This document shows positions 9,191-61,782 of a stretch of DNA of 64,000 nucleotides, one piece after another; within the stretch, counting starts at the first letter, position 1; each line of letters starts with the position of its first letter. Below the pieces are notes generated by a model. That model was not told where the DNA came from, made no database searches, and was given only the letters and a program-made list of their open reading frames with translations. This stretch comes from Clostridiaceae bacterium (GTDB lineage: Bacteria; Bacillota; Clostridia; Clostridiales; Clostridiaceae): the NCBI GenBank assembly GCA_040797845.1, contig JBFNFA010000002.1, positions 9,809 to 73,808 of the forward strand. The letters run 5' to 3'. A program made the position numbers and the translations under genes.

Positions 9191-10018
9191 TTAAATTATC
9201 AGTTGTTTTAAATCCTCTTTATTTATGGGTTTGCTAAAGTAATATCCTTGTACTTCATCACAATTAAATTCTCTTAAAATTTGTAGTTCTTCCAAGGATT
9301 CAACTCCTTCTCCTATAACTTTTAATCCCAAAGAATGAGCCATTTCAATAATTTTTGATACAATTATTTGTTGCTTCCTATCTACTTGAATTTTATCAAT
9401 AAAATGCTTGTCTATTTTTATAATATCTATAGGTAATATATTTAAATATTTAAAAGAGGAGTATCCTGTGCCAAAATCATCTAAAGCAATTCTAATTCCC
9501 ATTTTTTTTATCTCATTTAAAAGTTTTACCGTCCAATCAATATTTTTTACAGCAGTGGTTTCTGTTATCTCTATTTTTAGTCTCTCTGCACTTAGCCCAG
9601 TTTCATTGAGTATTCCGCTGATCCATGAGACAAAATTTAAATTTTCAAATTCTCTACTAGATATATTCACTGCTAAATTTAGATCCATTGACTCAATATC
9701 CAAAAATTCATTAGCTTCATAGCAAGCTTTTTTCATAATGTAATTGCTTATTTCAAATATTAAACTTGATCTTTCAGCTAAGCCTATTATTTTGTTTGGA
9801 GGTATATTTTTAAAATTAGAATTCCCCCATCTTAACAGGGCCTCAATGCCAACTATTTTTTTGCTTTTTAGTTCTATTTGAGGTTGATAATATACTTGAA
9901 ATTCTTCTTTTATCAGCCCTATTTCTATATTTTTTATTATATTTTTTTCCCAATTCTCTTCTAAGAATTTATCTTGTTGAACTTTAGTATAATTATCCTT
10001 TTGTAAACAAATTGCCAA
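9191..10018 (-). CDS. Stand-alone EAL c-di-GMP phosphodiesterase
   Basis: YQPQ, EALLRW, AVNIS, EITE, DDFGTGYSS, KIDK, EGVE, QGYYFSKP; AGAGGTG SD before TTG. Confidence 0.92.
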   Translation of the reverse strand: MAICLQKDNYTKVQQDKFLEENWEKNIIKNIEIGLIKEEFQVYYQPQIELKSKKIVGIEALLRWGNSNFKNIPPNKIIGLAERSSLIFEISNYIMKKACYEANEFLDIESMDLNLAVNISSREFENLNFVSWISGILNETGLSAERLKIEITETTAVKNIDWTVKLLNEIKKMGIRIALDDFGTGYSSFKYLNILPIDIIKIDKHFIDKIQVDRKQQIIVSKIIEMAHSLGLKVIGEGVESLEELQILREFNCDEVQGYYFSKPINKEDLKQLII

Positions 10019-25865: not shown

Positions 25866-27186
25866 TAGGGACGGTTCACACCAATTCCCTATTTTTTATC
25901 CTTTATATTTTACCACTTTTAATATATTGTTTAAATATATTCATTATGTCTATAATTATTAATGTCAATTTAAAATAAAATATACTTTAAATAAATAGAA
26001 AGGATGAAATAATTTGCCTAGAATTCCTAGAGTAAAGGTAGATAATGGAATATACCATGTTATAATGCGTGGACCTAAGGAAATAAATCTATTTAGAACT
26101 AAAAATGATAAGGATAAATTCCTTACTATATTAAGAAAATATAAAAATATATTCTTATTCGACGTACTTGCTTACTGTTTAATGGATACTCATATTCATC
26201 TATTGATTGATCCTAAAAATGCCGATATTAGTATGTTTATGAAATCAATTAATCAAAGTTATGCTCAATATTACAATAGAATATATGATAGATGTGGTCA
26301 TGTATTCATCGACAGATTTAAAAGTTTTGTAGCTTTAAAAGAAGAACAGATAGTTTCAATGTCAGCATATATACATAATAACCCTAAAGACATAAAAGGG
26401 TACAATAAGAGTGTTGAAAACTATGGCTATTCTAGCTTTGGAATATATATTGGCAAAACTAAGGATGAACACCAAATTATTAACTGCAGATTTTTATTAA
26501 ATTATTATTGTAAAGACCCAATTCAAGCTGCACAGCAATATTACTCCTATGTTAAAAATAGATGTACCGATAGAGATCAGTATATTCAAGATATCCTTGT
26601 AAATTTAAATGATAAGCTAAATTTAAAGTACAATTTATCTAACGATATCTCTTGTTATTATAGTGGAATAAAACCTCTGATTAAAGATATAACACCTGAA
26701 GAAGTTCTCAATTTCTTTTTTAAAGAATGCAACTTAGACAATACTCTCTTTAATATTAAATACAATAGAAAAATATCTAACTATAGAGCAATTATTGTTT
26801 TAGTACTGAGATCTTTTTGCAACTATACCTTTCAACAAATTTCTAATATAATAAATAATTTCACCCATTCATCTTTATCGCGGTTATGTACTAAGGGATA
26901 TTTCCTCATATCAAATGACAAATATTATAAAAATATAATAGATACCTTCTTAGAAAAATATTCTATTAATTATGATTATAAATATAGTTAATTTTTAAGA
27001 TTATGTTGTCAAAATATATACAAATAAATCATTATTGTACAACCTATAAAAATCTATAAAAACTATAAATATAAAATAAAGTTAAACTATTGGAGCATAA
27101 TAAAAAACAACTCATAAATTAAACTTGATTAGTCTAATTTATAAGCTGTCATTTATTAACTTTTTATAATTTATGAACCGTCCCTA
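25866..27186 (+). mobile_element. RAYT-REP module: HUH Y1 transposase gene bounded by a perfect 13-bp inverted repeat
   Basis: TAGGGACGGTTCA (25866-25878) and TGAACCGTCCCTA (27174-27186) flank the Y1 transposase gene. Confidence 0.75.
26014..26991 (+). CDS. REP-associated tyrosine transposase (RAYT, Y1_Tnp/HUH) with C-terminal helical DnaA_C-like domain
   Basis: MPRIPR, YHVIMRG, AYCLMDTHIHLL (HUH), YAQYYN, GHVF.DRFKS, YIHNNP (catalytic Tyr), YSS; extra ~120-aa C-terminal region. Confidence 0.9.
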   Translation: MPRIPRVKVDNGIYHVIMRGPKEINLFRTKNDKDKFLTILRKYKNIFLFDVLAYCLMDTHIHLLIDPKNADISMFMKSINQSYAQYYNRIYDRCGHVFIDRFKSFVALKEEQIVSMSAYIHNNPKDIKGYNKSVENYGYSSFGIYIGKTKDEHQIINCRFLLNYYCKDPIQAAQQYYSYVKNRCTDRDQYIQDILVNLNDKLNLKYNLSNDISCYYSGIKPLIKDITPEEVLNFFFKECNLDNTLFNIKYNRKISNYRAIIVLVLRSFCNYTFQQISNIINNFTHSSLSRLCTKGYFLISNDKYYKNIIDTFLEKYSINYDYKYS

Positions 27187-46779: not shown

Positions 46780-47715
46780 GTGAGCTTATCTATTGATACT
46801 CCTATTTATATAAATAAAAATTTAATAGTAGATTTACATTCCATATTAATAAATGGATTTATAGAAAGTAGAGCGGTAAGATTCTTAGAGGATAGAGCTA
46901 CCTTATTAAAACTACAAAAAGGATGCAAAACTAGTGAGGGTAGTGGAAAGAAAAAATCTAAAAATAATAACAAAGAAAAGAATGTATCGAAAGATTCATC
47001 CTTAAACTGTTCCGAAGATTTTTCAGCAATTCTTGATACTAGAAATGCCACTAAGAATGAAGTAAGCATCAAACAAATATTTACTACATTTCAAATATTT
47101 TTTGATTTAAGAAATATTATGTTAGAAAAAGGCGTGCTAAAATCCATAGGAAATAATAGCATAATGAACTATGACACTTCCCCTGGGGAATTTATAGAAT
47201 TTGAAGGACATATTTCTCCCACTTCTCCCTTATCTCAAATAAATACTATGATAGATATCTTCGAATGCTATGACTGCAAAAATTTAGATAAATTATTAAA
47301 AAGCAACGATTCAGAAGAACCTTTAAACAATTATTCTGTTATGTTAAAACAAATGAAAAACTTATCTGCATGTTTAAATAGAAATAATACAGTAAATATG
47401 ATAATGGATTGCAATTCCTTTACTTCTGTATTAAATGTAAATGTTAATAATTTTTCAGATAAAAATGCCTATATGTATGATACTGTTCATTGTCCCTGCA
47501 AGGTTCTATGCAAAGTAATTAAAGTTGTAAATGAAGATAATCATATAGATCTATTATGTAAAACTTGCATGAGTGATTACTATACAGAGCTTTTTAATCA
47601 AGCACAGCCATATTTAGATTTATTAGCTAAAAATAATATTATATTGCCCAAAGAGTTTACTAGTAAAATACAAGGACCTGCCATTCAAGTTATCCCACTT
47701 GCCATGTATGTATAG
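46780..47715 (+). CDS. Hypothetical protein (resembles DUF6414-type proteins)
   Basis: GGAGG SD, GTG start; PIYIN..DL, GEFIEFEG, IQVIPLAMY. Family call from memory only. Confidence 0.6.
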   Translation: MSLSIDTPIYINKNLIVDLHSILINGFIESRAVRFLEDRATLLKLQKGCKTSEGSGKKKSKNNNKEKNVSKDSSLNCSEDFSAILDTRNATKNEVSIKQIFTTFQIFFDLRNIMLEKGVLKSIGNNSIMNYDTSPGEFIEFEGHISPTSPLSQINTMIDIFECYDCKNLDKLLKSNDSEEPLNNYSVMLKQMKNLSACLNRNNTVNMIMDCNSFTSVLNVNVNNFSDKNAYMYDTVHCPCKVLCKVIKVVNEDNHIDLLCKTCMSDYYTELFNQAQPYLDLLAKNNIILPKEFTSKIQGPAIQVIPLAMYV

Positions 47716-47734
47716 TAGTAAACACTTATTTATT

Positions 47735-48150
47735 GTACGCAACTTAAAAATGCTACGTAATGTGCCCTATGCATTTGAGCGAAATCTAGAAATTCTTAAT
47801 TTATTTTAGAGATTTTTATAAAATAAATTTTAGAAATTCTTATTGTAGCGAACTAGCATAAGAAGCATTATATAGCATTTTTTGTTTGTTGTAATACAAA
47901 ATTGTTTTCACATTTATAAGTTTTTACAAAGATAAATAGGTATCCAAAATGGGAACTGAGATACATAATGACGTCACTTCACAAAAGGCGTTCCTCCCAT
48001 TATATACCTCAGTTCCTTTATGTTTTACAGATATATTTTCACAGTTGTAAATTTCTACAGAGATAGTTTGTTGTATTAAATAGAGAGCTAAGCACATAGT
48101 GAAGTTGCTCCAGAAAAAAGTCACTTTTTCACTACATACTTAGCTCTTTT
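47735..48150 (-). repeat. Hairpin-array repeat (family H), locus 1: modules B, A1, A2
   Basis: B arms 47746-47762/47866-47882; A1 about 47952-48016; A2 arms 48084-48103/48128-48147; homologous to 51005-51374 and 58490-59919. Confidence 0.88.
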
Positions 48151-48246
48151 GTTTTTTATATCCATATTTTATTTATGCATTTACTACTATTTTAATGTTC
48201 ACACCTAATAAATGCTATTACAAGAATACTTAAGAATATTAAGATT

Positions 48247-50766
48247 TTACTTATGAAGAAGGTTTATTAAAACTCTATATGCACCAGGCACTAAATTAGG
48301 AACTTGACGATACCAAGCAAGAGATGAGTAGGTGTAAGTTCCCTTTCCATATTCAGTTGTAAGCAATGTGCTGGTAAATTCACTTTCTCCAGGATCACCA
48401 GTGGAGATAAGCTCTACATATTTACTGTCCCATTTAGATGGATTATAAGCAGCTCTATCCTGAATCCAATTCTCCCAATCCTTTTCCGTTATTTTATTAG
48501 GGGAATTGAAAAATTTGTGCTCAGGCTTTAACATTGTAACCTTTGAGTTTTCATCTGTTACACGCCAATTCATAACAGGTGTTCCTATGGTCAATGGATA
48601 TGGGGCTAACTCTGGATTCCAATTGTCTTCGGCTTTATTATATTGTATTACTAAATTTCCACCATTTTTAACATATTCTAAAAGTCTATTGTTGCTCTTT
48701 ACAAGGTCAGGTCGTGCAAGATAGGCTCTAATTGCTACCACAATAGTATCAAACCTAGATAGGTTGCCTGCTTCTAAATCTTCTTTAGTTAGATTTGTTA
48801 CATTCAAACCAACACGACGAAGGAACTCGTCAGTCTCATCAAAACCACTAGATATATATCCTACCTTTAAATTTTTATCGAATTTAACATCAAAGGCTTG
48901 AACCTTTACTTGGGATGGTTGAACAAAATAGGTACGGCCTATGTGTGGATACTCAATAACTTGAATTGATTCCTCACTTACTACGGAACCTCTTAGTGCC
49001 TTAGCTTTAATTTCATGTGTTCCGTCTTCTACTTTAGCAGGAGGTTTTACAGTAAAATCTGCAGATTGAATTTCACCTTTTTTACTAAATTCAACTACTG
49101 TGGACTTAGGTTCTACTGACCAACCCTTGGGTACGTCAAGATATACTGTAGCTTTATTAGAGGAGGAAGTATAATTAGTTAAAGTCACAGTAACAGGAAT
49201 AGGTTTCTCTGGTTCCAGTGTATTTAATATAGCTGCTGATGGATTAAGAGATACTGAGAACTCTGGCAATACTGCAAAAAGCTCTTTAGAACTAACATTT
49301 AAAACAGCTTTTGAACCAAAACTTTCATATTCTACAGTAGCTTTCATAATATTTTCTTCATAAGGATGAAAAGTTTTTGCATTATTAGGTATGGTTACAT
49401 CAAATTCAAATATAGCTGTTTCACCATTTTTTAAAGTATTTTTTATAGGAGACTTTCCATTAACCTTCCAGCCAGCTGGTAAATTTAGCTTTGTCCCTAA
49501 ATTTTTAATATCTAAGTTTCCACCGTTGTACACCTTCACAGTAGTCTTTATAGTCTGCCCTCTAGTTACTTCTGAAGTTTCTGGGATAACTCTTATCACT
49601 ACAGAATTACTAACGCTACTAGCATTATAAAGTTGATCAATTTTCTTATTTAATCGGTGTAAAATATCTACTTTTAATTCTTTATTTAAAGAGGACTCAT
49701 TAACTTTTTTTATTGCAGATTCTACATCTACTATCATCTTGTGTACATTTTTATTAACCTCTTCAAAGTTAGGGAAGGATTTTTCTATATCTTCAGCATC
49801 TCTTTGAAGTTTCAAAATATGATCTACTACACCTTTAGAATTCTTATCTTTTTTTATTTCTTCTGCTAAATCTTTAAATGTAAATGCTATGCCATCAAAA
49901 AAATTTTCCTTTCCTTTTACTTCAGGCTTTAATAATGTGTAATAGCGATAAGATGGACCTTCTTCATAATCCCTTCCCATGCCCTGACACTTATGCATGT
50001 ATCGTGATTCCTCTCCTAATTGAACATAGGATGAAGCATAAACTTTATCATAAGTTCCAACAGGTACAGCTGTAGTGTGTTTATCCTTGCTTCCAGGTTC
50101 ATATAATTTCTTTGCCTTCCAAGGCATTAAACCTACTTTTAGATGTTCCGGGTATTTGGTAGGATCTTGTGCCAACTCATAAGCTTTCTTAGTCAAAATA
50201 TTTATAGCCTGGTGGTGTCCATGAGTACTTTTTACATTTTCAAATGCAGGGAAAATTACATCTGGACGGTGTGTTCTTATGCTCCTTACAAGACGCTCTA
50301 AAACCACATCTTCTCCCCATTTTTTTAAAGTTTCCTCCCAACTTTTAGAGAAACCAAAATCCTTCAAGGGTTCATCAATATCTTTACGAAGAATCTCTAA
50401 ATCTACATCTAATATTTTAGCCGCCTCTTCATACTCTCTAGTTCTTAACACACTTAAGGCATCCTCTAGTTCTGAACCAATCTCATTTTGTCCCCCTTGT
50501 CCTCGAGTTACACTTACTATAGAGGTGTCCACCCCTAAACCAAGAGAAGTATAAGCTAAAAGAGCACTGTGTTCATCATCAGGATGAGCACAAACATTCA
50601 TAACACTTGTTACCGTAGTTAAAGGTTTTATAGCCTTCCAAAGTTCTACAACCCCACGTTCTGCTCTAACCTGCTCCGCTCCAACTTTGTTGGGAACAAC
50701 AATTGATCCCATAATAAAAATTAGTGTAATTATAGAAGCTAAACGTTTAGTAAAAGATTTTGACAT
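48247..50766 (-). CDS. Secreted PIG-L/LmbE family deacetylase with NEW3 and C-terminal GATase-like domains
   Basis: AHPDDE, TRGQGGQN, RTRE, HGHHQA, HKCQGMG; NLPAGWKV; YVKNGGNLVIQY. Confidence 0.88.
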   Translation of the reverse strand: MSKSFTKRLASIITLIFIMGSIVVPNKVGAEQVRAERGVVELWKAIKPLTTVTSVMNVCAHPDDEHSALLAYTSLGLGVDTSIVSVTRGQGGQNEIGSELEDALSVLRTREYEEAAKILDVDLEILRKDIDEPLKDFGFSKSWEETLKKWGEDVVLERLVRSIRTHRPDVIFPAFENVKSTHGHHQAINILTKKAYELAQDPTKYPEHLKVGLMPWKAKKLYEPGSKDKHTTAVPVGTYDKVYASSYVQLGEESRYMHKCQGMGRDYEEGPSYRYYTLLKPEVKGKENFFDGIAFTFKDLAEEIKKDKNSKGVVDHILKLQRDAEDIEKSFPNFEEVNKNVHKMIVDVESAIKKVNESSLNKELKVDILHRLNKKIDQLYNASSVSNSVVIRVIPETSEVTRGQTIKTTVKVYNGGNLDIKNLGTKLNLPAGWKVNGKSPIKNTLKNGETAIFEFDVTIPNNAKTFHPYEENIMKATVEYESFGSKAVLNVSSKELFAVLPEFSVSLNPSAAILNTLEPEKPIPVTVTLTNYTSSSNKATVYLDVPKGWSVEPKSTVVEFSKKGEIQSADFTVKPPAKVEDGTHEIKAKALRGSVVSEESIQVIEYPHIGRTYFVQPSQVKVQAFDVKFDKNLKVGYISSGFDETDEFLRRVGLNVTNLTKEDLEAGNLSRFDTIVVAIRAYLARPDLVKSNNRLLEYVKNGGNLVIQYNKAEDNWNPELAPYPLTIGTPVMNWRVTDENSKVTMLKPEHKFFNSPNKITEKDWENWIQDRAAYNPSKWDSKYVELISTGDPGESEFTSTLLTTEYGKGTYTYSSLAWYRQVPNLVPGAYRVLINLLHK

Positions 50767-51004
50767 AACATACCCTCCTTTTTTTAAATATAATAAATAT
50801 AATTAGTTAATACGATTAACTAATTCTTTATTATTACTTTATATTATTCCACAGATTCCAAATGATTCCTTCATATAACAGAATTTTCAAAAAACTTTTT
50901 TTTAACAATCTCTGCGATTTTATATTGCATAATTCTTATATATCAGTTGATATTTGTAGAACCTTTAGATTGTTTTTTCAAATATGAGTTCCCACAAAAT
51001 TAAC

Positions 51005-51374
51005 TAGGTATCAAAAGGGAACTAAGTACATAATGACGTCACGTCACAAAAGGCGATCCTCCCATTATATACTTAGTTCCTTTATGTTCCACAGATGCAT
51101 TTTCAAATTTATATTGTGCCGAATTGATTTCTAAAATATAAATTTCTACAAAGATAATTTAGTTTTACAAATGAAGAGCTAAATACATAGGTGAAGCGCT
51201 CCAGAAAAAGTCACTATTTCACTACATACTTAGCTCTTTTGTTTTTAGAAATATATTTTTAAATTTATATTATGACAGTTTAATTTGCTAAATATTAATT
51301 TTTATAATTTCATTGGGTAAAACTTAAAAATGCTACGTAATGTGACCTATGCATTTAAGCAAGATCTAGAAATT
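51005..51374 (-). repeat. Hairpin-array repeat (family H), locus 2: A1, A2, C, first half of B
   Basis: A1 51018-51080; A2 51175-51237; C from 51261; B left half 51321-51374, ending at the DUF4358 stop codon. Confidence 0.88.
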
Positions 51375-51843
51375 ATTTAAAATATCCATCGAAAATACTT
51401 TCTATTTTTTCACTATCCTCTGAAATAATAAATAATATATATCTACCGTTGTTCTTTAATGTATAGTTTTTTGCATTTTCATATTGATCTGGCAGATACG
51501 TTTCAAAGGTTTTTTGTACATCACCTGCACGCTTCTTTATTCCTTCAACTACTTCATCAACGTTTTTTTCATCTTTTACTTTAATTATCGCTAATTCATC
51601 TGCTTTTACATTCATTAATGGGATTTGAACAACAAACTCTTCTATAATATCAGGGTTAACGTAGTATTTTTCTTTTACTTCTTCCTCTTTTAGCTCTACC
51701 ATAGGTGAACTTTCTACCTCATCTTTAATTTTTTCCGCTATTTCTCTAACTGACACATTTACTTCTTTCGTAGTTTTGCCACATCCAAATAGTGAAAGTA
51801 AACTTACAATTAAAAGTAAGAATATAAGTACTTTTTTATTCAC
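51373..51843 (-). CDS. DUF4358 family lipoprotein
   Basis: GGAGGAG SD, GTG at 51843, lipobox LFGC, ADELAIIKVKD, FETYLPDQY. Confidence 0.8.
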   Translation of the reverse strand: MNKKVLIFLLLIVSLLSLFGCGKTTKEVNVSVREIAEKIKDEVESSPMVELKEEEVKEKYYVNPDIIEEFVVQIPLMNVKADELAIIKVKDEKNVDEVVEGIKKRAGDVQKTFETYLPDQYENAKNYTLKNNGRYILFIISEDSEKIESIFDGYFK

Positions 51844-52080
51844 GCTATCTCCTCCTCTTGTAATTAAATATTTAGCTTGTCTCAATATTTAATACGCAAA
51901 GGAAATATAAATAGATATATGATTAGAAATTATTTTTGTACCAATTTCATCCTATAATTATCATCCCAAATGCTCCTATTAAAGTGTGTAAAAGTCATTT
52001 ATATCATAGTAATTACTATGAATTCTAAAACTTTAAATAAAAATTATAAATGCAAATTATAAATACAAATTATAAAATAA

Positions 52081-52115
52081 AAAACTAAGCTACCCATATT
52101 GGATAGCTTAGTTTT
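52081..52115 (-). terminator. Terminator after the MATE gene
   Basis: AAAACTAAGCTA-CCCATATTGGA-TAGCTTAGTTTT. Confidence 0.65.
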
Positions 52116-52198
52116 AATTATTAAGATTCTTATCTTATTAACTATTCTCCATTCACTAGATTTATATTTAAATAGTAGAATGTAAAATTCTATGAAAA

Positions 52199-53593
52199 TT
52201 AGACTGTTGCAGCTTTTTTAGGCTGCTCTAAAGTCTCTTCCTGCAGCATCTCCTTTTTTAAGCTCTTGTTTAACCAAATGGACATTATAAGAGTTTCTAT
52301 AAATGCCAATCCATCCGCTGCCGTTTGACAGAATATTACTCCATTTAACCCCATAAACTTTGGTAAAATATACATCAATGGGATATAAAATATTCCCTGT
52401 CTAGATATAGATAATATAAAAGCTCCCACTGCTTTACCTAAGGCTTGGAATAATACTGCATAGGTATTTATATATCCGAAAAGTGGAAATAATAAACTTG
52501 CTGATCTAAAGGCCTTTATTCCTATATCTATAACCTCTCTATCTCTTGTAAATATGAGCATACACTGCTCTCCAAAAGCTATAAATATAATAGATACAAA
52601 TATGGCAGCAATTGTGCTCCATTTAATAGATATTTTTATAGCTTCTTTTAATCTAGTAAAGTTTTTAGCTCCATAATTATATCCTGCAACAGGTTGGAAT
52701 CCTTGTCCGATTCCAAATACTATATAAAATCCTATAGACATAACTCTAAATACTATACCCATGGCAGCCACTGCTGCATCTCCGTAAGGTTTTGCTCCTA
52801 AATTCATAAATCCTAGAGCAAAGCTTGCCAATACTTGAGTTACAAAAATAGGAATACCTATCTTAAGTATTTCAAAAAACATATTAAAAGTTGGTTTTAA
52901 AAGCTTAATGCTTAATTTTATATAGCTTTTCTTAGAATAATAATATCTTAAAAGAAAAATGAAGGATACTAACTGGGATATAACCGTAGCAACTGCGGCA
53001 CCTTTTATACCCATATTAAATGTAAACATAAATATAGGATCTAGTATTATGTTTATAATACCTCCTATACAAGTAGATATCATACTATATTTTGAATTTC
53101 CTTCTGCTCTAATAGTATTGCTCATTATTGCTGTTCCAATAGTAAAAACTGATCCCAATACTATTGAATATCCATATTCTCTTGCATAGGGCATTATGGT
53201 TTCTGTTGCTCCATACATCAATAAAAAATTATCTAAAAATATTGTAGCGATTACAGTAAAAATTAAACTAAATATACATCCAATTATTATAATAGATGTT
53301 AGAGTCTTATCAGCTTCCTCTTTTTTCTTTTCTCCCAACAATCTTGATAGATAAGAAGCACCTCCTGCACCAAACATAACCCCTATAGCTCCAATAAACA
53401 TAAACAGTGGATATACTATAGATACGGCAGCAATAGCACTAGTATTGTTTAACATACCAACAAACATAGTATCAACTATGTTATAAATAGCATTAATTAA
53501 CATAGCTATTATTGCAGGTACTGATAACTTTAAAAGCACCTTGGATATACTCTCTTTCTCCATCATTTCTGCTGTAGATATTGTGTTTTTCAT
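52199..53593 (-). CDS. MATE family efflux transporter
   Basis: LSVPAII, YNIVDTMFVG, RLLGEK, IRAEGN, NIILDPIF, GIKGAAVAT, QPVAGYNYGA. Confidence 0.93.
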   Translation of the reverse strand: MKNTISTAEMMEKESISKVLLKLSVPAIIAMLINAIYNIVDTMFVGMLNNTSAIAAVSIVYPLFMFIGAIGVMFGAGGASYLSRLLGEKKKEEADKTLTSIIIIGCIFSLIFTVIATIFLDNFLLMYGATETIMPYAREYGYSIVLGSVFTIGTAIMSNTIRAEGNSKYSMISTCIGGIINIILDPIFMFTFNMGIKGAAVATVISQLVSFIFLLRYYYSKKSYIKLSIKLLKPTFNMFFEILKIGIPIFVTQVLASFALGFMNLGAKPYGDAAVAAMGIVFRVMSIGFYIVFGIGQGFQPVAGYNYGAKNFTRLKEAIKISIKWSTIAAIFVSIIFIAFGEQCMLIFTRDREVIDIGIKAFRSASLLFPLFGYINTYAVLFQALGKAVGAFILSISRQGIFYIPLMYILPKFMGLNGVIFCQTAADGLAFIETLIMSIWLNKSLKKEMLQEETLEQPKKAATV

Positions 53594-53797
53594 ATTCTTT
53601 TTTGCCTAATGAAAGCCTAGAAAAGCTTAGACATGCCTCCCTTCATAATTTAAATCTTAATTTTTTAATTTTATTATTATAGCGCTAGGCTTTGATTTTA
53701 TTTTTATAGGTCTTGAAATTAAGAACCACTTGCTAATATACCACGTTATTTTGTTCTTGACAAATACAATTTTAATACCCCTAAAAATTAATATATA

Positions 53798-53825
53798 AAG
53801 GCAAAGAGACTCCCTCTTTGCCCTT
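53798..53825 (-). terminator. Terminator-like hairpin downstream of the ABC operon
   Basis: AAGGCAAAGAG-ACTCC-CTCTTTGCCCTT. Confidence 0.55.
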
Positions 53826-53834
53826 ATACGTTAA

Positions 53835-54035
53835 ATTTATCCGATGACTACCATCCGTAATACTCCCATCGCACTCTGTGAAAGCGATTCACATAAAATC
53901 AAAGATTTTAGTTCTCTGCTTTTCTACAAGTGAAATATAACGGATGCTACGTCCCTGGATAAGTTCTTCTAATCTTCAGCTGGAGTAAGTATTCCTTTTA
54001 AGAAAACTCCATCTAAACCTAAGAATCACTTGATA
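53835..54035. repeat. ~200-bp interspersed double-hairpin repeat (family X, copy 2) with a 51-bp nested insert
   Basis: Homologous to 5128-5324; extra block 53870-53920. Confidence 0.85.
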
Positions 54036-54037
54036 TT

Positions 54038-55003
54038 CTATTTTACAATTAAATCTTCAATATTAATCTCTTTTTCTTGTAGTCCATTCTTTAACATAAA
54101 CTCTTGTGTTCTTTTAAGTTCTTCTATGTCTTTATCACTTATATTGCTATCAAAATCATACCAAGAATACATCTCTTTTGTTTCTTCAGGTGTTAATCCA
54201 ACTTCCTTAGCTGTTATCTCCATAGCTTCATCAAGATTATTATTTATATAGTCAATAGTATCTTTATGAACTTTTTTAAATCTATTAACTACTTCTTTGT
54301 TTTCCTCTAAAAACTTTTCACTTACAGCAGTTACTATAGTACCTTCTACTATTCCTTTTCCATTAGCTACAACTTTTCCTCCTGCCTTTATAGCATTTAA
54401 AGCCGCTGGTCCAGCTAAAAGTGCTACATCTACACTTCCATTATTAAGTGCAGCCAAAGCTTCTGGTATTCCCATATTTATAAATTCTATATCATCCTGT
54501 TTTAGTCCATCCTTTTCTAAGGTTCCAAGTAAAAGTTGATGAAGTACTGTTCCTTTAGGTCCCGCTACCTTTTTTCCTAAAAGATCCTTTGAGCTTTTTA
54601 TATCATCATTCTTTGTTATTATCATGAAAGCTTTAGGCGCTCTACTATATACATTAATTATTTTTAAATCTACTCCATTGGATGCAGCTAAAATAGCAGA
54701 AGTTCCTCCAAGAGCATGTACAAATTGTATTTCTCCAGCAGCAAGAGCTTGAGTTTGTTGAGGTCCTGAGGTTATTTCATGCCACTTTACCTCTATTTTG
54801 TCCTTTTCAAATTCTTTCTCAAAGCTTTCTTTGTTCTTTTCAATTATTGATGGTACATTTAAAGGTGCCTTTACATAAGTTATGTTTATTGGTTTATTAT
54901 TCTCCCCTTTAGCTTTCTTTTCTGTACTAGCACACCCAGCTAATACACTTCCCCCTATAGCAACTGTTAGTAATAATGACAATATCTTTTTTCCTTTTAT
55001 CAT
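54038..55003 (-). CDS. ABC substrate-binding lipoprotein, SsuA/NMT1-like
   Basis: Lipobox LAGC, SGPQQTQALAAG, GKKVAGPKGTVLHQLL. Confidence 0.88.
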   Translation of the reverse strand: MIKGKKILSLLLTVAIGGSVLAGCASTEKKAKGENNKPINITYVKAPLNVPSIIEKNKESFEKEFEKDKIEVKWHEITSGPQQTQALAAGEIQFVHALGGTSAILAASNGVDLKIINVYSRAPKAFMIITKNDDIKSSKDLLGKKVAGPKGTVLHQLLLGTLEKDGLKQDDIEFINMGIPEALAALNNGSVDVALLAGPAALNAIKAGGKVVANGKGIVEGTIVTAVSEKFLEENKEVVNRFKKVHKDTIDYINNNLDEAMEITAKEVGLTPEETKEMYSWYDFDSNISDKDIEELKRTQEFMLKNGLQEKEINIEDLIVK

Positions 55004-55031
55004 GTGTATCCCTCCAATTTATTTATACTAA

Positions 55032-55756
55032 TTAATATTCATCTTTAGAAAGGGTTTTTAAAATGTCTTCCTTAATATATATAAGATTATTTAAAGCTAA
55101 ATTTCTTGGGTAACTTTCCTCTATTCTATAATCTTTTATTACCTTTCCTTTATCCAAAATTATAATTCTATGCCCTAGTAAAATTGCCTCATCTACATTA
55201 TGAGTTACAAAAACTATTCCCTTTTTAGTTTCTTCATATAAATTTATAATTTCTCCTTGAAGATTAGATCTTGTGAAGTAATCCAATGCTGCAAAAGGCT
55301 CGTCCATTAACATTATATCTGGCTCATAAGCAAGGGCACGAGCTATGGAGACTCTGTGAGCCATCCCCCTGAAAGCTGGCTAGGATAAGCTTCTGAAAAC
55401 TTCTCTAACTTCATAAGCTTCAAAAGTTTATCTTCTATTTCCCTATTCCCTTTCTTTAAATAGAAAGTTATATTTTCTCTTACTGTAAGCCAAGGCATAA
55501 GTCTGCTCTCTTGAAATACCATTCCTATTTTAGGTTTAACTTCAACCTTATTCCTATAAAATGATATATTCCCTAAAGTAGCATCTTCTAATTTTGCTAA
55601 TAATCTTAATAGAGTTGTTTTTCCACATCCACTTTTGCCAAGTATTATAGTTATCATATTGCTTTCAATATTTAAATTTATACCCTCTAAAACTCTATAA
55701 CTTTTCCCATTTACTATGTAATCTTTACTTAAATCATTTATGCTATATCCTCTCAT
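55032..55756 (-). pseudogene. SsuB-like ABC ATPase split by a single-base frameshift
   Basis: 55343-55756 has GKSGCGKTT and ends LSGG; 55032-55364 continues MAHRVSIARAL..MDEPF..VTH. Junction is a G5 run (C5 at 55365-55369) where six bases restore the frame. Confidence 0.85.
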
Positions 55757-56510
55757 TATCGTCTACCCCTATGTCCCACACATTAATCCTTTTTACTAAA
55801 ATGGAAAATAAATAATCCATTAAACTTCCTAAAATCCCTATACATAAAATACCCACAATTACTACATCTGACCTTGAAAGCTGCTGTCCATCTAAAATAA
55901 GATATCCTAATCCCGATGAAGCCGCTACCATTTCTGCCCCTATTATAGCTCTCCAACTATAGCCTATACCAAGCCTCATTCCAACTAATATGTTAGGGAG
56001 TGCAGAAGGAACTACTATTTTAAAAAATATATCTTTTTTAGGAAGATCAAAAATTTTTCCTACTTCAATTAATTTTTTATCGCAACTTTCTACGCCTTTT
56101 ATGGTATTTAAGAACACTGGAAAAAAGGAGGCTAATATTATAATTATTATTTTAGACTTTTCCCCAATACCGAACCATAATATAAGCATTGGAACTAAAG
56201 CTAAAGGTGGAGTGTGTCTTATAAACTCTAATGCTGGTTTAAAGTAAATATATATTTTCTTATTTACTCCAAATAAAATTCCAATGGGAATTGCTAAAAG
56301 TAGAGTTATAAAAAATCCTATTAAAACTCTTATTAAGCTATATCCTATATGTTTAAATAAAACTCCTGAAGCCATAAGACTGGCCGCACTTTGAACTACG
56401 GATTGTGGTGAAGGAAGTATATAAGAAGTCCAATAGTTATTTATGCTACCTATATACCATAGAAAAACTATGGCTATAATAAGTATATATCCTTTTAACT
56501 TATACCCCAT
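55743..56510 (-). CDS. ABC permease, SsuC-like
   Basis: ILPSPQSV, IRHTPPLAL, EAA-like loop, AEMVAASSGLGY. Confidence 0.9.
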   Translation of the reverse strand: MGYKLKGYILIIAIVFLWYIGSINNYWTSYILPSPQSVVQSAASLMASGVLFKHIGYSLIRVLIGFFITLLLAIPIGILFGVNKKIYIYFKPALEFIRHTPPLALVPMLILWFGIGEKSKIIIIILASFFPVFLNTIKGVESCDKKLIEVGKIFDLPKKDIFFKIVVPSALPNILVGMRLGIGYSWRAIIGAEMVAASSGLGYLILDGQQLSRSDVVIVGILCIGILGSLMDYLFSILVKRINVWDIGVDDNERI

Positions 56511-57147
56511 CTCCCCTATTACATCCTCCTTTACACAACAGCATCTCTATAAGATTAACTTTTTCCTTTGTTTTCTCTATATTTTTTACCTCTTTTAATA
56601 TTTCTTCTTCTCCGCTTACCTCTGAAATATCTAGGTTTAAATCTCTAAAGAAACCAAGTGGGATAGGCGATTCACTACATCTATCTTCCTTTTTTATATG
56701 TAATCTTTCACATATATCATTCCAGGTTTCAAAAACAATCCTCGTCTTTCCTTCTTTTTCAAATATATGATTTCCCATGTCCTTTAGACAATTACAAGGA
56801 GTAGTTATAAAAAGTCTATTATCTTCGTCATTCTTTATGTATAAATCATATAAAGATCTAGCAGTATGAATTAATATTGGCTCTATTTTAGGTATGTGAA
56901 ATTTACTATGATTTATTTTATTTTCTATGTATTCAATAGCTGCAGGACATCTTGTGTCCAATATTATTTTATCTTCTTTTTCACTACATAAGGTTTTAAA
57001 TTTATTTTTCACCACATCTATTTGACTAGGAGGCTCTACCACTTCATAATCTTTTCTTTTTAGCTCTTGTAATAAATTTTCAAATTTAATCCCATACATA
57101 TTCTTAACAACTGGGTTTATCCAAATATAATTCATGATTAATTTCAT
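56500..57147 (-). CDS. Stand-alone [FeFe]-hydrogenase H-domain-like (Nar1-like) Fe-S protein
   Basis: DTRCPAA, ITTPCNCLK and EMLLCKGGCNRGDG match degenerate H-cluster motifs L1, L2 and L3. Confidence 0.72.
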   Translation of the reverse strand: MKLIMNYIWINPVVKNMYGIKFENLLQELKRKDYEVVEPPSQIDVVKNKFKTLCSEKEDKIILDTRCPAAIEYIENKINHSKFHIPKIEPILIHTARSLYDLYIKNDEDNRLFITTPCNCLKDMGNHIFEKEGKTRIVFETWNDICERLHIKKEDRCSESPIPLGFFRDLNLDISEVSGEEEILKEVKNIEKTKEKVNLIEMLLCKGGCNRGDGV

Positions 57148-57201
57148 CCTTTAAATCTTTTATTTTATATAATATAGCAAACAGTTTTATAATGCTAATT
57201 A

Positions 57202-57216
57202 TGATAATGATTATCA
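57202..57216. promoter_or_regulatory. Fur box upstream of the Fe-S protein/ABC operon
   Basis: TGATAATGATTATCA is an exact Firmicute 7-1-7 consensus TGATAATnATTATCA; 17/19 to the classical box (57203-57221); 55 nt upstream of the start. Confidence 0.85.
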
Positions 57217-57484
57217 ATATCATCATCTGTTACATTTTATCAATTCTATAAAAGTAAGTCAATATATGAATACTACATCATTTCCTCTATTTCATATTTT
57301 ATTACTATATTCCTCTTTTTTCCCTATAATCTATTAAATTTTGCTAGTTTTTTATACAAATATAACTTGATAATATAATTTTTAAGAAATTATTAAGAAT
57401 TTGGACAAATTCCTTTAATAAAATCTCTATAAATCTTTGGTATAATTAATAAATATATGAAACTAATACGAGGTAAGTGATGCT

Positions 57485-58399
57485 ATGAGAAAACTAAAAA
57501 GATTATTTAGAACAATATTTTTTATGATATTTATAGTGGCTATGTTTAAAGTCCTACATAATTTTAATTTTAAAAAAGATGTGCTTCCTGCGTCTGCTAT
57601 GAAAATCTATATTAAAGCTTCCGATGAAGTAAGCGAAAACAAACTTCAAGTAAATTGGAAATATGTAGCCGCATTGGATTCCTTGCGTATAAATAATGAC
57701 TTTTCAAAGGCAAATATAGAGGATGCAAAAAAAATAGCTGATGAATTTTTAGAGGTAAATACTTCAGAAAATAAATTTAAGAATTCTAAATATAAATTAT
57801 TGAGTTTTGATGAAGTTATAAACAAATTTTCCTATACCGATAAAGAGAAGGAGAAAATTTATAAATTTTTAGATCAATTAAATGATAAATATTTAGTTCA
57901 AGTAGATGAGAGTAAAAAAGTCTTCATAGAGGAATTAACTCCTACAGCTATAGACATATATAAAAATTATGATATTCTTCCCTCTGTAGCAATTGGACAA
58001 GCTATTATAGAATCTAATTGGGGTAATTCTACCCTTTCTTCTGAACATAATAATTTATTTGGCATAAAGTCTACTAAGTCATGGAAAGGCAAAACTGTAG
58101 ATATGAAGACTTCTGAAAACTATGATGATACCATAGTTGCTACATTTAGAGCCTATGATTCTCAAAAAGATTCCTTAGCTGATTATGCACAATTCCTTAA
58201 AAATAATCAAAGATATAAAGAAAATGGAGTTTTCAATGCCGTTGATTACATAAATCAAGCTAAAGCAATTGATAAAGCTGGATATAGCACAAAAAAGGAT
58301 GAGGATGGGAAAAATATGTATGCAGATCTTCTCATACAAATTATAAAGGAATATAATTTACAGCTTATCGATAGTAAGGTTCAACAAGAATCTTTTTAA
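57485..58399 (+). CDS. GH73 glucosaminidase-domain peptidoglycan hydrolase
   Basis: PSVAIGQAIIESNWG, NNLFGIK, FRAY, AGYST, YADLL; N-terminal TM. Confidence 0.9.
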   Translation: MRKLKRLFRTIFFMIFIVAMFKVLHNFNFKKDVLPASAMKIYIKASDEVSENKLQVNWKYVAALDSLRINNDFSKANIEDAKKIADEFLEVNTSENKFKNSKYKLLSFDEVINKFSYTDKEKEKIYKFLDQLNDKYLVQVDESKKVFIEELTPTAIDIYKNYDILPSVAIGQAIIESNWGNSTLSSEHNNLFGIKSTKSWKGKTVDMKTSENYDDTIVATFRAYDSQKDSLADYAQFLKNNQRYKENGVFNAVDYINQAKAIDKAGYSTKKDEDGKNMYADLLIQIIKEYNLQLIDSKVQQESF

Positions 58400-58489
58400 G
58401 TACATATTTATTGTTCAAAATTAAAGAACTAACCATATAAACATATTTATAAAATGGTTTTTATATTGTTAAGCCTCTACAAAGATACT

Positions 58490-58746
58490 TCAGTATTCAA
58501 AAGGGGAACTAAGTACATAATGACGTCGTTTCAAAAAGGCACTCCTCCCATTATATACTTAGTTCCTTTATATTTTAAAAATGTATTTTCAAATATAAAT
58601 TTCTACAAGAACAATTTAGTTTTACAAATATAGAGCTAAATATGTAGTGAAGCCGCTCCAATAAAAAGTCGCTTTTTCACTACATACTTAGCTCTTTTGT
58701 ATTTTACAAATATATTTTCAGAATTAGGTTATGACAGATTAGTTTT
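58490..58746 (-). repeat. Hairpin-array repeat (family H), locus 3 left part: A1, A2, C
   Basis: A1 58505-58566; A2 arms 58632-58651/58676-58695; C ends with TTATGACAGATTAGTTT at 58729-58745. Confidence 0.88.
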
Positions 58747-58813
58747 CAACTTGTAATTTTTACAAAAAATATTTGAGTATTCAAAACGAGGATTGAAGCA
58801 CATAACAATTCTC

Positions 58814-59032
58814 TTAAAGGTACTTTTTCAATTCATCTAAGCTATCAATATCAAATATATCCGTAGCTATAACATCAATAGTCTCTTCATCTAAAGCCTT
58901 TATCCTTTGTTTATATTCCTCGGGAATAGATTTAAATTTTTTTATAAGTTGTTTTATAAGAATTTCTGCCTTGCCTTCTTTCATTCCTTCTTTTACTCCG
59001 TCTTCCCTCAACATCTTTCCTATTTCAGTCAT
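58814..59032 (-). CDS. Predicted in-frame internal 72-aa protein (RpnS-like)
   Basis: AAGGAG (59042-59047) lies 9 nt before the ATG at 59032: MTEIGKMLREDG...DELKKYL. Confidence 0.6.
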   Translation of the reverse strand: MTEIGKMLREDGVKEGMKEGKAEILIKQLIKKFKSIPEEYKQRIKALDEETIDVIATDIFDIDSLDELKKYL

Positions 59033-59680
59033 GGACACCAACTCCTTAAATTTTATTTTTGATAATTCATCTCCAAACTTATCAAATAAAGCATATAATA
59101 AGCTTAAACATTGCAATTTTTCATTGCCCTCAGGCATTTTACCTGCTAATTCTATACTGTCTAAGGTTCTTTTGCTTCTACTTTCTTTTCCTCTCATCAA
59201 AGGTATAAAACTTAGTGCTACTATATCTTCACCATTTAAAGTTTCTTCTCTTTCTATCTTATTCTTTAAATACTCCAACTTTTCATCTCCATCTAAGTTT
59301 TTCATATAAAAAGCTTCTATTTCATATTTTATAGTTCCTGCATCTATATAGGTTTCAACATCCTCTATATCCGCTGAATAAATTACTATGGTTCTTATTT
59401 TTCTCTTTTCCTTATAAAAAAGTGATGCATCATAATATAAGAATCTCTTAATATCTTCTTTTTTATCCGTAGTTTGAAATTCAAAATGTAGATAGTTTCC
59501 ATCTTCTGTGTAAAAAAGATAGTCAGTATAGTTAGTTTTAATGTCTATGTTCTTTATTTCAGTTTCTGCCGGAGCTACTATTTTAGTGTCTATACCAAAA
59601 AATTTCACCGCATTATCTTTAAAGAATTCCATAGCCTTTTTTAAAACTGCATCTTCTACTTTATTATAATCCATACTCAT
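58814..59680 (-). CDS. Rpn/YhgA-like PD-(D/E)XK nuclease with C-terminal DUF4351
   Basis: TDYLF...LHFEFQ catalytic-type motif, RFLYY, GVKEGMKEGKAEILIKQLIKKF tail. SD spacing may favour the second Met (59674). Confidence 0.82.
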   Translation of the reverse strand: MSMDYNKVEDAVLKKAMEFFKDNAVKFFGIDTKIVAPAETEIKNIDIKTNYTDYLFYTEDGNYLHFEFQTTDKKEDIKRFLYYDASLFYKEKRKIRTIVIYSADIEDVETYIDAGTIKYEIEAFYMKNLDGDEKLEYLKNKIEREETLNGEDIVALSFIPLMRGKESRSKRTLDSIELAGKMPEGNEKLQCLSLLYALFDKFGDELSKIKFKELVSMTEIGKMLREDGVKEGMKEGKAEILIKQLIKKFKSIPEEYKQRIKALDEETIDVIATDIFDIDSLDELKKYL

Positions 59681-59748
59681 CCTCTCTTTCTACTGGTAAT
59701 TAAATATTAGGTATATACCATATTATTTCCAATAGGAAAAGATTTATG

Positions 59749-59762
59749 CGAATGTATGTTCG
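59749..59762. promoter_or_regulatory. LexA (SOS/Cheo) box upstream of the rpn gene
   Basis: CGAATGTATGTTCG matches CGAACRNRYGTTYG at 13/14; about 70 nt upstream of the start. Confidence 0.7.
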
Positions 59763-59919
59763 AAATTTATATTATGACGGATTAGTTTATCAAATATTAG
59801 TTCTTATAATTTATTGTATAAAACTTAAAACTGCTATGTAATGTACTCTATGCAATTGATTAAAATCTAGAAATTCTTATTACAACAAGACAGCATAAGA
59901 GGCATTATGTAACATTTTT
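59763..59919 (-). repeat. Hairpin-array repeat (family H), locus 3 right part: C, B
   Basis: 59763-59878 aligns with 51261-51374; full B hairpin 59821-59919 aligns with 47741-47882. Confidence 0.85.
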
Positions 59920-60090
59920 ATTTTTTGTACTCCTAAGTTGCTTTCTTAAATGTAGATTTTTGCGAATAATAATTATTATTTAATAAATATTTCAAAATCA
60001 TATAGCATAAGCGAAAATTTTGTAGTATAATTTTGTAACAAGTAGAATATGGTGGAATTATATTTGAAAATGACGAGGGAGGATTATTAC

Positions 60091-61782
60091 ATGAAGGATA
60101 TAAATAAGGGTAATATGAAAATTAAAACAAAATTATTTTTAGTGTTAACTTTAGTAACTGCACTTATTTTATCAATGATTGCTACTAATTTTTATACACT
60201 ATCAAAATTAAATGGAGATGCTACTGCTATAAACTTATCGGGCAGTGAAAGAATGAGAAGCTATAAGTTAGCTTATAGCACTAACTCATACATATACGAA
60301 ATAGATTCTACAAAAAAATCTCAACTAAAAGAAGATATATTAAAGGAGATAAATACCTTTGATAAAATATTAATTGGCTTAGAAAAGGGAGATAGTGAAT
60401 TAAATCTAATACCGATAAAGGATGAGTACAGCATTGAAAAACTAAACTCTATCAATAGTGAATGGAGTAAAATGAAAGAAACATATAATTCGATTATCAA
60501 TACAGAAGATATAAATTCACAAAAAAATAATTCTCAATACATAAGTGAAAATGTTAATGATATTGTAGGAGAAATTAATGAATTAGTTAATAATCTTGAT
60601 GATATTTCAGCTAAAAAAGTAACTTTCTCTAAAAACATTAGTATTGTATTTTTCTTAATTGCAGTGGGTATTTTACTATTTATCTTTACATTCATAATAA
60701 ATACTATAATAACGCCAATTGAGAATATAAAAAACAATATGAAAGATATAGCCTCTGGAGAGGGGGACCTAACAAAAAGAATACTTATAAAAAGCAATGA
60801 TGAAATAGGAGAATTGGCCTTAGGGTTTAATTCCTTTGTGGAAAATATTCATAATATAGTGTCTAACGTGGTTATAACTACAAAAAATACAAAGGAAACT
60901 TCAGAGCAAATATCAGCTATAGCTATTCAAAACATGGAAGCTACTGAAACCATCTCATTATCTGCACAAAGTGTTTCCATTGGAAGTAATACGCAAACTA
61001 ATGAGATTGAAAATTTGTTTTCTAAAGTAGAAGAGGTAACAAATGAAATTAAAGAAATAAATACTATAATCAAAAATGTATCAGGTAACTCAAAACAATC
61101 AGAGCAGGAAGCTCTAAATGGAAATAATAAAATTGAAGAGACAAAAGAGCAGCTAGATTTAGTAAGAGAAACTATAAATGAAATGGATGGAAAGATGACA
61201 TTATTGGATACTAACTCAAGGGAGATAAGTAAAATAATTGAGTTAATAACTAACATCTCGAGTCAAACTAATTTACTTGCCCTCAATGCTTCTATAGAGG
61301 CAGCAAGAGCTGGTGAGCTTGGTAAAGGATTTGCTGTAGTAGCTGAAGAAGTAAGAAAACTTGCTGATGAAACAGAGGATGCGGCAAGACAAATAGTACC
61401 TTTTATTAAGGAAGTTCAAGGAAATGTCTATTCTATAAAAAACAACATGGGGGAAGTTACAAAAGAATTAGATAAAGAATTCGCCGTATTAAATGAAACC
61501 ATAAATACTCTACATATTATACTAGAGGGAAGCAAAAACACTGTTTTAGGAATAGATAATGCGAAAGGTATAATGATGAATTTAGATAATAACCTTGAAA
61601 ATATAAAAGAAATCTTTATAGATATAATGAATATAACAAGGGAAAATTCAGCAAATATGCAAAACGTAGCTGCAGCCGCAGAAGAGCAATCTGCATCTTC
61701 AGAGGAAATGTCTTCTTCTATAGACAATTTATTTTCTATGATCTTAGATTTACATAATAAAGTATCTGGTTTTAGGGTGTAA
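60091..61782 (+). CDS. Methyl-accepting chemotaxis protein with PilJ/NarX-like sensor domain
   Basis: [18 protein letters not shown] after TM1; HAMP (SNDEIGEL); [34 protein letters not shown]; GGGAGG SD before ATG 60091. Confidence 0.92.

Follow-up and report, generated by a model that had tools for sequence, protein, structure and literature searches.

Three hairpin clusters in a Clostridiaceae genome are probably part of a lineage-specific family of mosaic intergenic repeats

The stretch considered here (64,000 nucleotides, positions 9,809 to 73,808 of contig JBFNFA010000002.1, or C2:9809-73808 in our labelling; hereafter the window) comes from a Clostridiaceae bacterium whose genome (assembly GCA_040797845.1, our G000) amounts to 4.06 Mb in 33 contigs with 30% G+C, and it carries three clusters of short modules, named A1, A2, B and C, many of which fold into hairpins. 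The genes between the clusters encode PIG-L/NEW3, DUF4358, MatE, ABC importer and glucosaminidase proteins; they stand in both orientations and keep their order in two relatives, an uncultured Clostridium metagenome-assembled genome (MAG; G001) and Clostridium mobile MSJ-11 (G003). The third cluster encloses a minus-strand gene for an Rpn-like protein. An earlier reading made from the letters alone, the original prediction, took the modules for a local array of homologous hairpins with one arm motif and variable loops, read by one protein and reminiscent of the attC cassette sites of integrons. We consider it probable that the window holds three clusters of lineage-specific, non-coding, mosaic intergenic repeats, of the kind represented by repetitive extragenic palindromes and bacterial interspersed mosaic elements (REP/BIME), BOX elements or miniature inverted-repeat transposable elements (MITEs), their spread by mobilisation in trans included, and not a dedicated recognition array.

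The module inventory of the original prediction stood up well. Direct reading of positions 47600-60100 found three A1 and three A2 hairpins, two B fold-backs and one left half of B, in the orders B-A1-A2, A1-A2-C-B(half) and A1-A2-C-rpn-C-B as predicted, and a repeat finder recovered all modules of the window as families (Table 1). Compared with shuffled sequence, the six A hairpins fold at z -5.1 to -8.9 on the minus strand and z -2.0 to -7.4 on the plus strand, and the B copy of cluster 1 at z -5 to -7, whereas cluster 3 has a shortened B (59823-59922) that does hardly better than its shuffles (z -1 to -2). Rfam returned no family at gathering threshold in the whole window, and a permissive scan of cluster 1 gave chance-level matches (E 0.3-0.4).

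What did not survive is the notion of a local array, since the same modules make up 94 clusters across the genome. When module copies were located by BLAST and iterated nhmmer, with overlapping matches on the two strands removed and gene positions approximated by long open reading frames (3,729 of them, covering 86.5% of the genome), A and B together came to about 185 copies in intergenic DNA, namely about 139 A-type units, which the loop signature assigns to 44 A1 and 95 A2, and 46 copies of B. All but two of the A units (137/139) are intergenic. Convergent gaps, which represent 10% of gaps and 12.5% of intergenic length, hold 42% of them, and divergent gaps, with 19% of intergenic length, hold 5%; an A unit is found within 150 bp past the stop of 2.4% of genes and before the start of 0.5%. 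Most clusters elsewhere in the genome flank no special gene.

Table 1. Repeat clusters, modules and the enclosed gene, in window positions
Feature	Positions	Strand	Remarks
Cluster 1: B, A1, A2	47746-48155
Cluster 2: A1, A2, C, left half of B	50974-51377
Cluster 3: A1, A2, C, minus-strand rpn-like gene, C, B	58460-59922
B, cluster 1	47746-47890		145-bp internally deleted copy; nhmmer 116.8 bits; fold -37.7 kcal/mol, z -5.2
A1 unit, cluster 1	47906-48025 (hairpin 47951-48017)	-	nhmmer 89 bits; fold minus -30.3, plus -22.9 kcal/mol
A2 unit, cluster 1	48037-48155 (hairpin 48082-48149)	-	nhmmer 94.6 bits; fold minus -31.2, plus -22.0 kcal/mol
A1 unit, cluster 2	50974-51088 (hairpin 51015-51083)	-	nhmmer 78 bits; fold z -5.1 to -7.1
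A2 unit, cluster 2	51129-51245 (hairpin 51173-51239)	-	nhmmer 83.4 bits; fold minus -28.1, plus -15.6 kcal/mol
C module, cluster 2	51246-51304		extended tail/junction of A unit; nhmmer 30.5 bits
B left half, cluster 2	51322-51377		adjoins stop of DUF4358 gene; nhmmer 30-37 bits; sequence read directly
A1 unit, cluster 3	58460-58574 (hairpin 58502-58569)	-	missing from orthologous site in G001 and G003
A2 unit, cluster 3	58586-58703 (hairpin 58632-58695)	-	nhmmer 95 bits; fold minus -34.5, plus -27.2 kcal/mol
C module left of rpn cassette	58704-58763		holds direct repeat TTATGACAGATTAGTTT at 58729-58745
X, degenerate A unit (leader and 5' arm)	58744-58830		reaches last codons of rpn-like gene; nhmmer 17.5 bits, E 5e-7 on local stretch
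Rpn-like DUF4351 protein gene, 288 aa	58814-59680	-	Pfam: DUF4351 only
C module right of rpn cassette	59748-59806		LexA-like box CGAATGTATGTTCG at 59749-59762; second direct repeat TTATGACGGATTAGTTT at 59772-59788
B, cluster 3	59826-59922		shortened to 97 bp; weak fold, z -1 to -2; full-length orthologue in G001

The A hairpin is one part of a larger unit. Flank-extended alignments delimit an A unit of 120-130 nt, composed of a leader of about 55 nt, a hairpin with an AT-rich stem of 19-20 bp and a loop of 22-27 nt, and a tail, about 30 nt long, which coincides in part with the leader of the next unit. Because the hidden Markov model of each subtype finds copies of the other and the alignments show one unit, homologous over its entire length, A1 and A2 are, as judged by sequence, diverged subtypes of one element; their predicted homology is borne out over the whole unit rather than the arm alone. 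C is the long form of the A tail. Neighbouring A units have the same orientation in 46 of 46 pairs, and 39 of the 46 are heterotypic, against about 44% expected from the subtype frequencies. Measured from centre to centre, their distances fall into two groups, at about 127-131 and 155-160 nt (registers of ~129 and ~157), and the 28-nt gap between the two registers corresponds to the C segment, the long register being taken where C is present. Module order within clusters is otherwise free (A1-A2, A2-A1, A2-B, B-A1-A2, A2-B-A1-A2 and others).

Among 102 aligned A hairpins, RNAalifold yielded an 18-pair stem in which 15 of the 18 pairs show changes on both sides. Stem cells were paired in 96.8% of cases against 86.3% in column shuffles, and compensatory cells numbered 215 against 55; none of 500 shuffles reached any of these measures, and sliding the stem partners abolished the covariation signal. 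Part of this covariation is inheritance, since A1 and A2 each bring their own paired arms; A2 taken alone has 13 distinct compensatory pair types, each in one to three copies. The pairing also differs between the strands. In the aligned 18-pair core the window's minus strand has 96.8% of cells paired against 87.9% for the complement, with 192 against 29 G·U pairs; the strand of the window-minus type folds more stably in 101 of the 117 hairpins (mean about -30 against -24.5 kcal/mol), and DNA energy parameters agree on the favoured strand (100 against 11). The bias is confined to this core: when wobble pairs were counted more crudely, with the outer AG/CT extensions taken in, none was seen (232 against 195). 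Such a bias in the stem pairing points to the importance of a single-stranded form, be it single-stranded DNA or RNA. The loops, which the original prediction had called variable, are in A2 as conserved as the arms: loop divergence from the consensus is 9%, that of the two arms 7% and 12%, and that of the flanks 21-26%.

Let us consider the case of RNA, in which A units would be structured RNAs, either small RNAs or modules of 3' untranslated regions transcribed from the window's minus strand, kept for transcript stabilisation, termination, or base-pairing through a C/U-rich or GGAGG-containing loop, with their spread being secondary. The one-strand pairing through G·U, the conservation of the loop along with the stem, and the location of A units past gene ends would all suit this scenario. 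However, in tandem gene contexts A units have no orientation preference, the well-folding strand being co-directional in 36 and antisense in 33, so that there is no consistent relation to read-through; no convincing promoter was seen, promoter-like matches being no more frequent than expected from shuffled sequence; Rfam, as noted, was silent; and 139 copies, with differences in presence from one species to the next, are more in keeping with a mobile element than with a gene family. We therefore regard retention for an RNA function as unlikely to be the primary explanation.

B is a different element. At its full length of about 195 bp it forms a long imperfect palindrome (one full-length copy folds at -58.8 kcal/mol); the B ends lie 180-199 bp apart in 16 copies, and the remainder are shorter deletion derivatives. 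Small, non-coding, present in many copies and bounded by terminal inverted repeats (AAAAATGCTATGTAATG / CATTATATAGCATTTTT), B answers in these respects to the description of a MITE. The copies in the window (145 and 97 bp) are deletion forms, and the deletion in the 97-bp copy occurred in place, since its orthologue in G001 is full length. One pair of occupied and empty sites, the B of cluster 1 in the window and the corresponding site in G001, shows an imperfect 9-bp flanking repeat, TTTRTTGTA (TTTATTGTA / TTTGTTGTA). B elements are also frequent at contig ends of G000, where they are cut near the palindrome centre (C8:55-158, C17:55-156, C12:128291-128385, and contigs C22, C26 and C30), and the long fold-back seems to break short-read assemblies.

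The relationship between A and B needs to be stated with care. The minus-strand arms quoted by the original prediction are real, and the motif TA(T/C)RTARTG, said to be shared by A1, A2 and B, is present in every A and B arm of the window; the 64 kb contain it 22 times where 9.3 would be expected, with seven occurrences, near chance level, outside the modules. The homology that was read from it is not established for B: when the B ends were locally aligned with the A arm consensuses, and random 32-mers from the intergenic DNA of this genome (30% G+C) served for comparison, the resemblance was not significant (p = 0.03-0.10), and the motif does not lie next to the loop in B, whose arms extend past it in the long fold-back. 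B appears to be unrelated to A and is prone to internal deletion. The two are nevertheless co-located far above chance, 36 of the 44 B-containing clusters also holding A, next to 50 clusters with A only and eight with B only. The link between A and B is one of co-location and common taxonomic range, with sequence resemblance not established, and co-location together with the same narrow range makes it plausible that one machinery is common to both. The two observations that the original prediction itself had named as speaking against it were largely what we encountered, in that the A-B arm similarity is not significant and modules occur alone and differ at orthologous sites.

The range of both repeats is indeed narrow. 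Among 41 relatives searched, A was present only in four genomes of one small genus, that of C. mobile and its relatives, abundant in three and sparse in the fourth (G002), and among 31 relatives B was present in the same four only, with the copies of G002 being fewer and more diverged (77-85% identity); the match counts in the relatives' genomes are lower bounds for A as well as B. An exact 29-nt A2 pattern, searched against one genome per species for 185,579 species, had matches in two of them only, G003 (C. mobile MSJ-11) and G001 (the uncultured Clostridium MAG), and phage and plasmid collections gave no match. Within this range, the syntenic regions of G001 and G003 are 88-95% identical in nucleotide sequence in aligned blocks, and the repeats in them differ. 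G001 lacks the B of cluster 1, which is present in G003, and has no cluster 2; G003 has an extra A unit inside the B of cluster 1 and no rpn cassette at cluster 3; at another shared site A2 is reversed in orientation in G001; and among about 40 further shared sites compared, many differ in cluster length. The repeat family is dynamic now or was so recently.

The gene within cluster 3 was the candidate for the one protein proposed to read the array. Its product has DUF4351 at the C-terminus as the sole Pfam match; the N-terminal ~230 residues match nothing in Pfam even at E 10, and no NCBIfam or PADLOC profile was matched, so that no profile over the PD-(D/E)XK core places it in the Rpn/YhgA-like family (Transposase_31, TIGR01784). 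Its homologues are named DUF4351 proteins at NCBI and, for some of those at JGI (58-77% identity), members of the TIGR01784 family, and the motif D..HFEFQ looks like the D...ExQ of that family; the label "Rpn-like" is reasonable but tentative. The genome has one intact copy and one 43-residue C-terminal remnant. Homologues were found in 31 of 60 scored genomes of the family, including G000 and G002, those in 30 other genomes being 55-85% identical. The LexA-type box CGAATGTATGTTCG lies upstream of the gene's promoter, and because comparable palindromes recur upstream of homologues in G001, in G003, in another genus (locus L015: CGAACACTAGTTCG) and in three metagenomic lineages, the Rpn-like family is probably under SOS regulation. 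The cassette that carries the gene measures about 1.04 kb and has on either side a 17-nt direct repeat, TTATGAC(A/G)GATTAGTTT, of which the empty site of C. mobile has a single copy. The orthologue of C. mobile (88% identity by BLASTP, 91% by genome search) is at another locus (L025), about 85 bp from an A2, and a paralogue in the C. mobile genome and the remnant in G000 are each 5 bp from an A2; G002 has rpn pseudogenes only. In a genome of another genus (G044), about 15 matches to the Rpn-like gene were seen, many ending very short contigs (L020; C128, C16, C113, C134, C67), one contig of 984 bp being essentially the gene alone, so that the gene behaves there as a multi-copy, assembly-breaking repeat. 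The region 59681-59747, in the rpn promoter region, resembled an A leader by eye and was considered as the origin of the A unit; it gave p 0.84 against 1,500 random intergenic 67-mers and was discarded.

From this proximity one could argue that the hairpins are sites which the SOS-controlled Rpn-like PD-(D/E)XK protein recognises or cleaves, and that it would move or process them as Ssn does with Neisseria NTS repeats, there being precedent for one nuclease whose repeat sites in the genome number in the hundreds (PMC11893778). In the repeat-rich genomes every rpn-type locus lies about 5-110 bp from an A unit (three or four loci, counting the gene shared by G000 and G001, the orthologue and the paralogue of G003, and the remnant of G000), against a background of 2.4% of genes; the degenerate A unit X extends into the rpn stop codon; and G002, with pseudogenes only, has the fewest and more diverged repeats. 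Yet the adjacent A units have no consistent orientation relative to rpn, two lying each way, and the clusters are regionally dense, making the true local background several-fold higher than 2.4%. Repeats are confined to the genus and rpn homologues are widespread beyond it: 12 homologue loci (L013-L019 and L021-L023 in other genera; L026 and L029, G002) have no A, B or C module and no recurring hairpin, nor do four metagenomic homologues of 79-85% identity have A, B or C within 3 kb. In vitro, E. coli RpnA shows little or no preference for sequence when it cuts DNA, and it favours double strands (PMC5350276); and, as said, the N-terminal domain is unmatched by the Pfam and NCBIfam Rpn models. 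With a single-copy gene, close homologues living without such repeats, and a non-specific RpnA in E. coli, the idea of one protein, the neighbouring Rpn, reading the array loses its footing, and we think it improbable; the gene is in all likelihood a passenger in cluster 3. A bolder version, in which the SOS-controlled Rpn-like DUF4351 nuclease of cluster 3 would have its natural DNA substrates in the A units, and perhaps in B, with cutting or recombination at the folded strand or a cruciform after DNA damage driving both the head-to-tail arrays and the movement of the cassette between repeat clusters, is in our estimate a long shot. If true, it would provide a first defined target and a real mobile-element role for the Rpn/TIGR01784 "putative transposase" family. 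That rpn-type genes repeatedly lie close to A units offers a testable lead on the natural targets of these proteins.

The direct repeats around the rpn cassette, single at the empty site, also bear upon the suggestion of attC-like cassette boundaries, between which genes would have been captured by a site-specific recombinase, and the imperfect hairpins with a strand-biased fold recall the bottom-strand logic of attC, where the folded single strand counts and not the sequence. But the genes between the clusters are ordinary and syntenic, stand in both orientations and keep an order in G001 and G003 that is independent of the modules; they are not cassettes. Clusters elsewhere mostly flank no special gene, and genome-wide the units are tandem, co-oriented and at the 3' ends of genes. 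No integrase was seen beside the clusters, intI itself not having been searched for. The repeats further differ from attC sites in having conserved loops and sequences, tandem units with no intervening genes, no cassette structure and dispersal over the whole genome. We give this explanation hardly any credence.

The repeats are nearest in kind to REP/BIME, BOX and MITE elements, without showing in full the defining features of any of them. Like the REP/BIME of Enterobacteria and Pseudomonas, which depend on Y1 transposases of the REP-associated tyrosine transposase (RAYT) type, they are intergenic palindromes found past gene ends in hundreds, with two alternating subtypes in arrays with fixed linkers; for REP/BIME the recognition of a single-stranded hairpin is accepted, and such elements are known to contribute secondarily to termination and mRNA stability. 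REP sequences are GC-rich hairpins of 20-40 nt with a GTAG head; here an AT-rich stem of 19-20 bp is topped by a large conserved loop, and the units are all direct, whereas the REPs of a BIME alternate in orientation. A RAYT link was considered and dropped, as neither Y1_Tnp gene (window 26038-26382; C15:42580-42915) is flanked by A or B; the one in the window, 21 kb upstream of the clusters, has an inverted repeat of its own, with no relation to the A or B arms (stretch 25866-27186; TTAGGGACGGTTCA / TGAACCGTCCCTAA). With BOX of Streptococcus pneumoniae (boxA-boxB(n)-boxC), RUP and the Correia-type MITEs the family has in common that lineage-restricted, modular, non-coding repeats with stable hairpins lie near gene ends, and B resembles MITEs as generally described (PMC3184786) in its long fold-back, terminal inverted repeats and deletion derivatives; there is, however, no sequence relationship, module order is free here and fixed there, and no insertion sequence was found to match. 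The one-protein idea has its nearest precedent in Ssn, a GIY-YIG single-strand nuclease encoded by one gene, with the hundreds of NTS/SRM repeats dispersed around genes as its sites (Chenal et al. 2025, PMC11893778). The candidate in our case belongs not with the GIY-YIG nucleases but with the PD-(D/E)XK-like DUF4351 proteins, and its tie to the repeats would be putative; an Ssn-like link was tried as well, and none of the three GIY-YIG genes of the genome is beside A or B.

If we accept a lineage-specific mosaic repeat as the best description, the most likely mechanism is that an enzyme acting in trans moves them, or formerly moved them, as non-autonomous DNA elements. The recognised form would be a single strand folded into a hairpin, the window's minus strand, in which G·U/G·T pairs and compensatory changes keep the pairing intact, and arrays would then grow and shrink by recombination between the leader and tail sequences that units have in common. 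After insertion, the hairpins probably serve as two-way transcription stops or as stabilisers of RNA ends, and such a putative role would explain why the repeats are tolerated at gene ends.

Several findings weigh against this scenario. In two clusters a simple scan detected no canonical terminator, the loops being too large for its limit. The two Y1 (HUH) genes have, as described, unrelated inverted repeats or no A or B nearby, and the assembly contains no multi-copy transposase. In the comparisons of occupied and empty sites no clean target-site duplication was seen for A units, one case being an apparent replacement of the whole spacer and another the reversed unit mentioned above, and the B insertion provides only its imperfect 9-bp repeat. 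No pair of B-type ends more than 300 bp apart, and hence no long B-ended element, was found in this assembly, other genomes not having been searched. Finally, much of the G·U bias is concentrated in four polymorphic columns, where founder inheritance may take the place of copy-by-copy selection; founder effects do contribute to the strand bias.

What had appeared as a special locus is in our description replaced by a repeat family with defined unit boundaries, subtypes, registers and a preferred strand. For annotation of this genome and its relatives, the family accounts for many hairpins between genes, for several contig breaks and for much of what distinguishes the spacers of sister species. 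Repeat biology gains an AT-rich example from the Firmicutes, in which strictly co-oriented arrays of two alternating subtypes are combined with quantised spacing and a one-strand fold, and such arrays should be useful for asking how arrays arise without a linked RAYT or insertion sequence.

Two further elements lie between the clusters of the window. One, a 242-bp stretch at 51953-52194 downstream of the MatE gene, is present in G003 and missing in G001, and includes a terminator-like hairpin (AAAACTAAGCTA...TAGCTTAGTTTT) whose stem has AACTAAG in common with the A arms, perhaps by chance. The other, at 53839-54035, is a different element of about 195 bp, cleanly inserted between the MatE and NMT1-like genes with no target duplication or terminal inverted repeat seen, and missing from the same site in G001 and G003. 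A 2.8-kb query containing it gave at least 58 matches in G000, at least 58 in G001 and at least 67 in G003, few of them to the flanking genes and some to separate 5' and 3' halves of the element. It resembles the non-autonomous elements derived from IS200/IS605, and the genome has two Y1 transposase genes.

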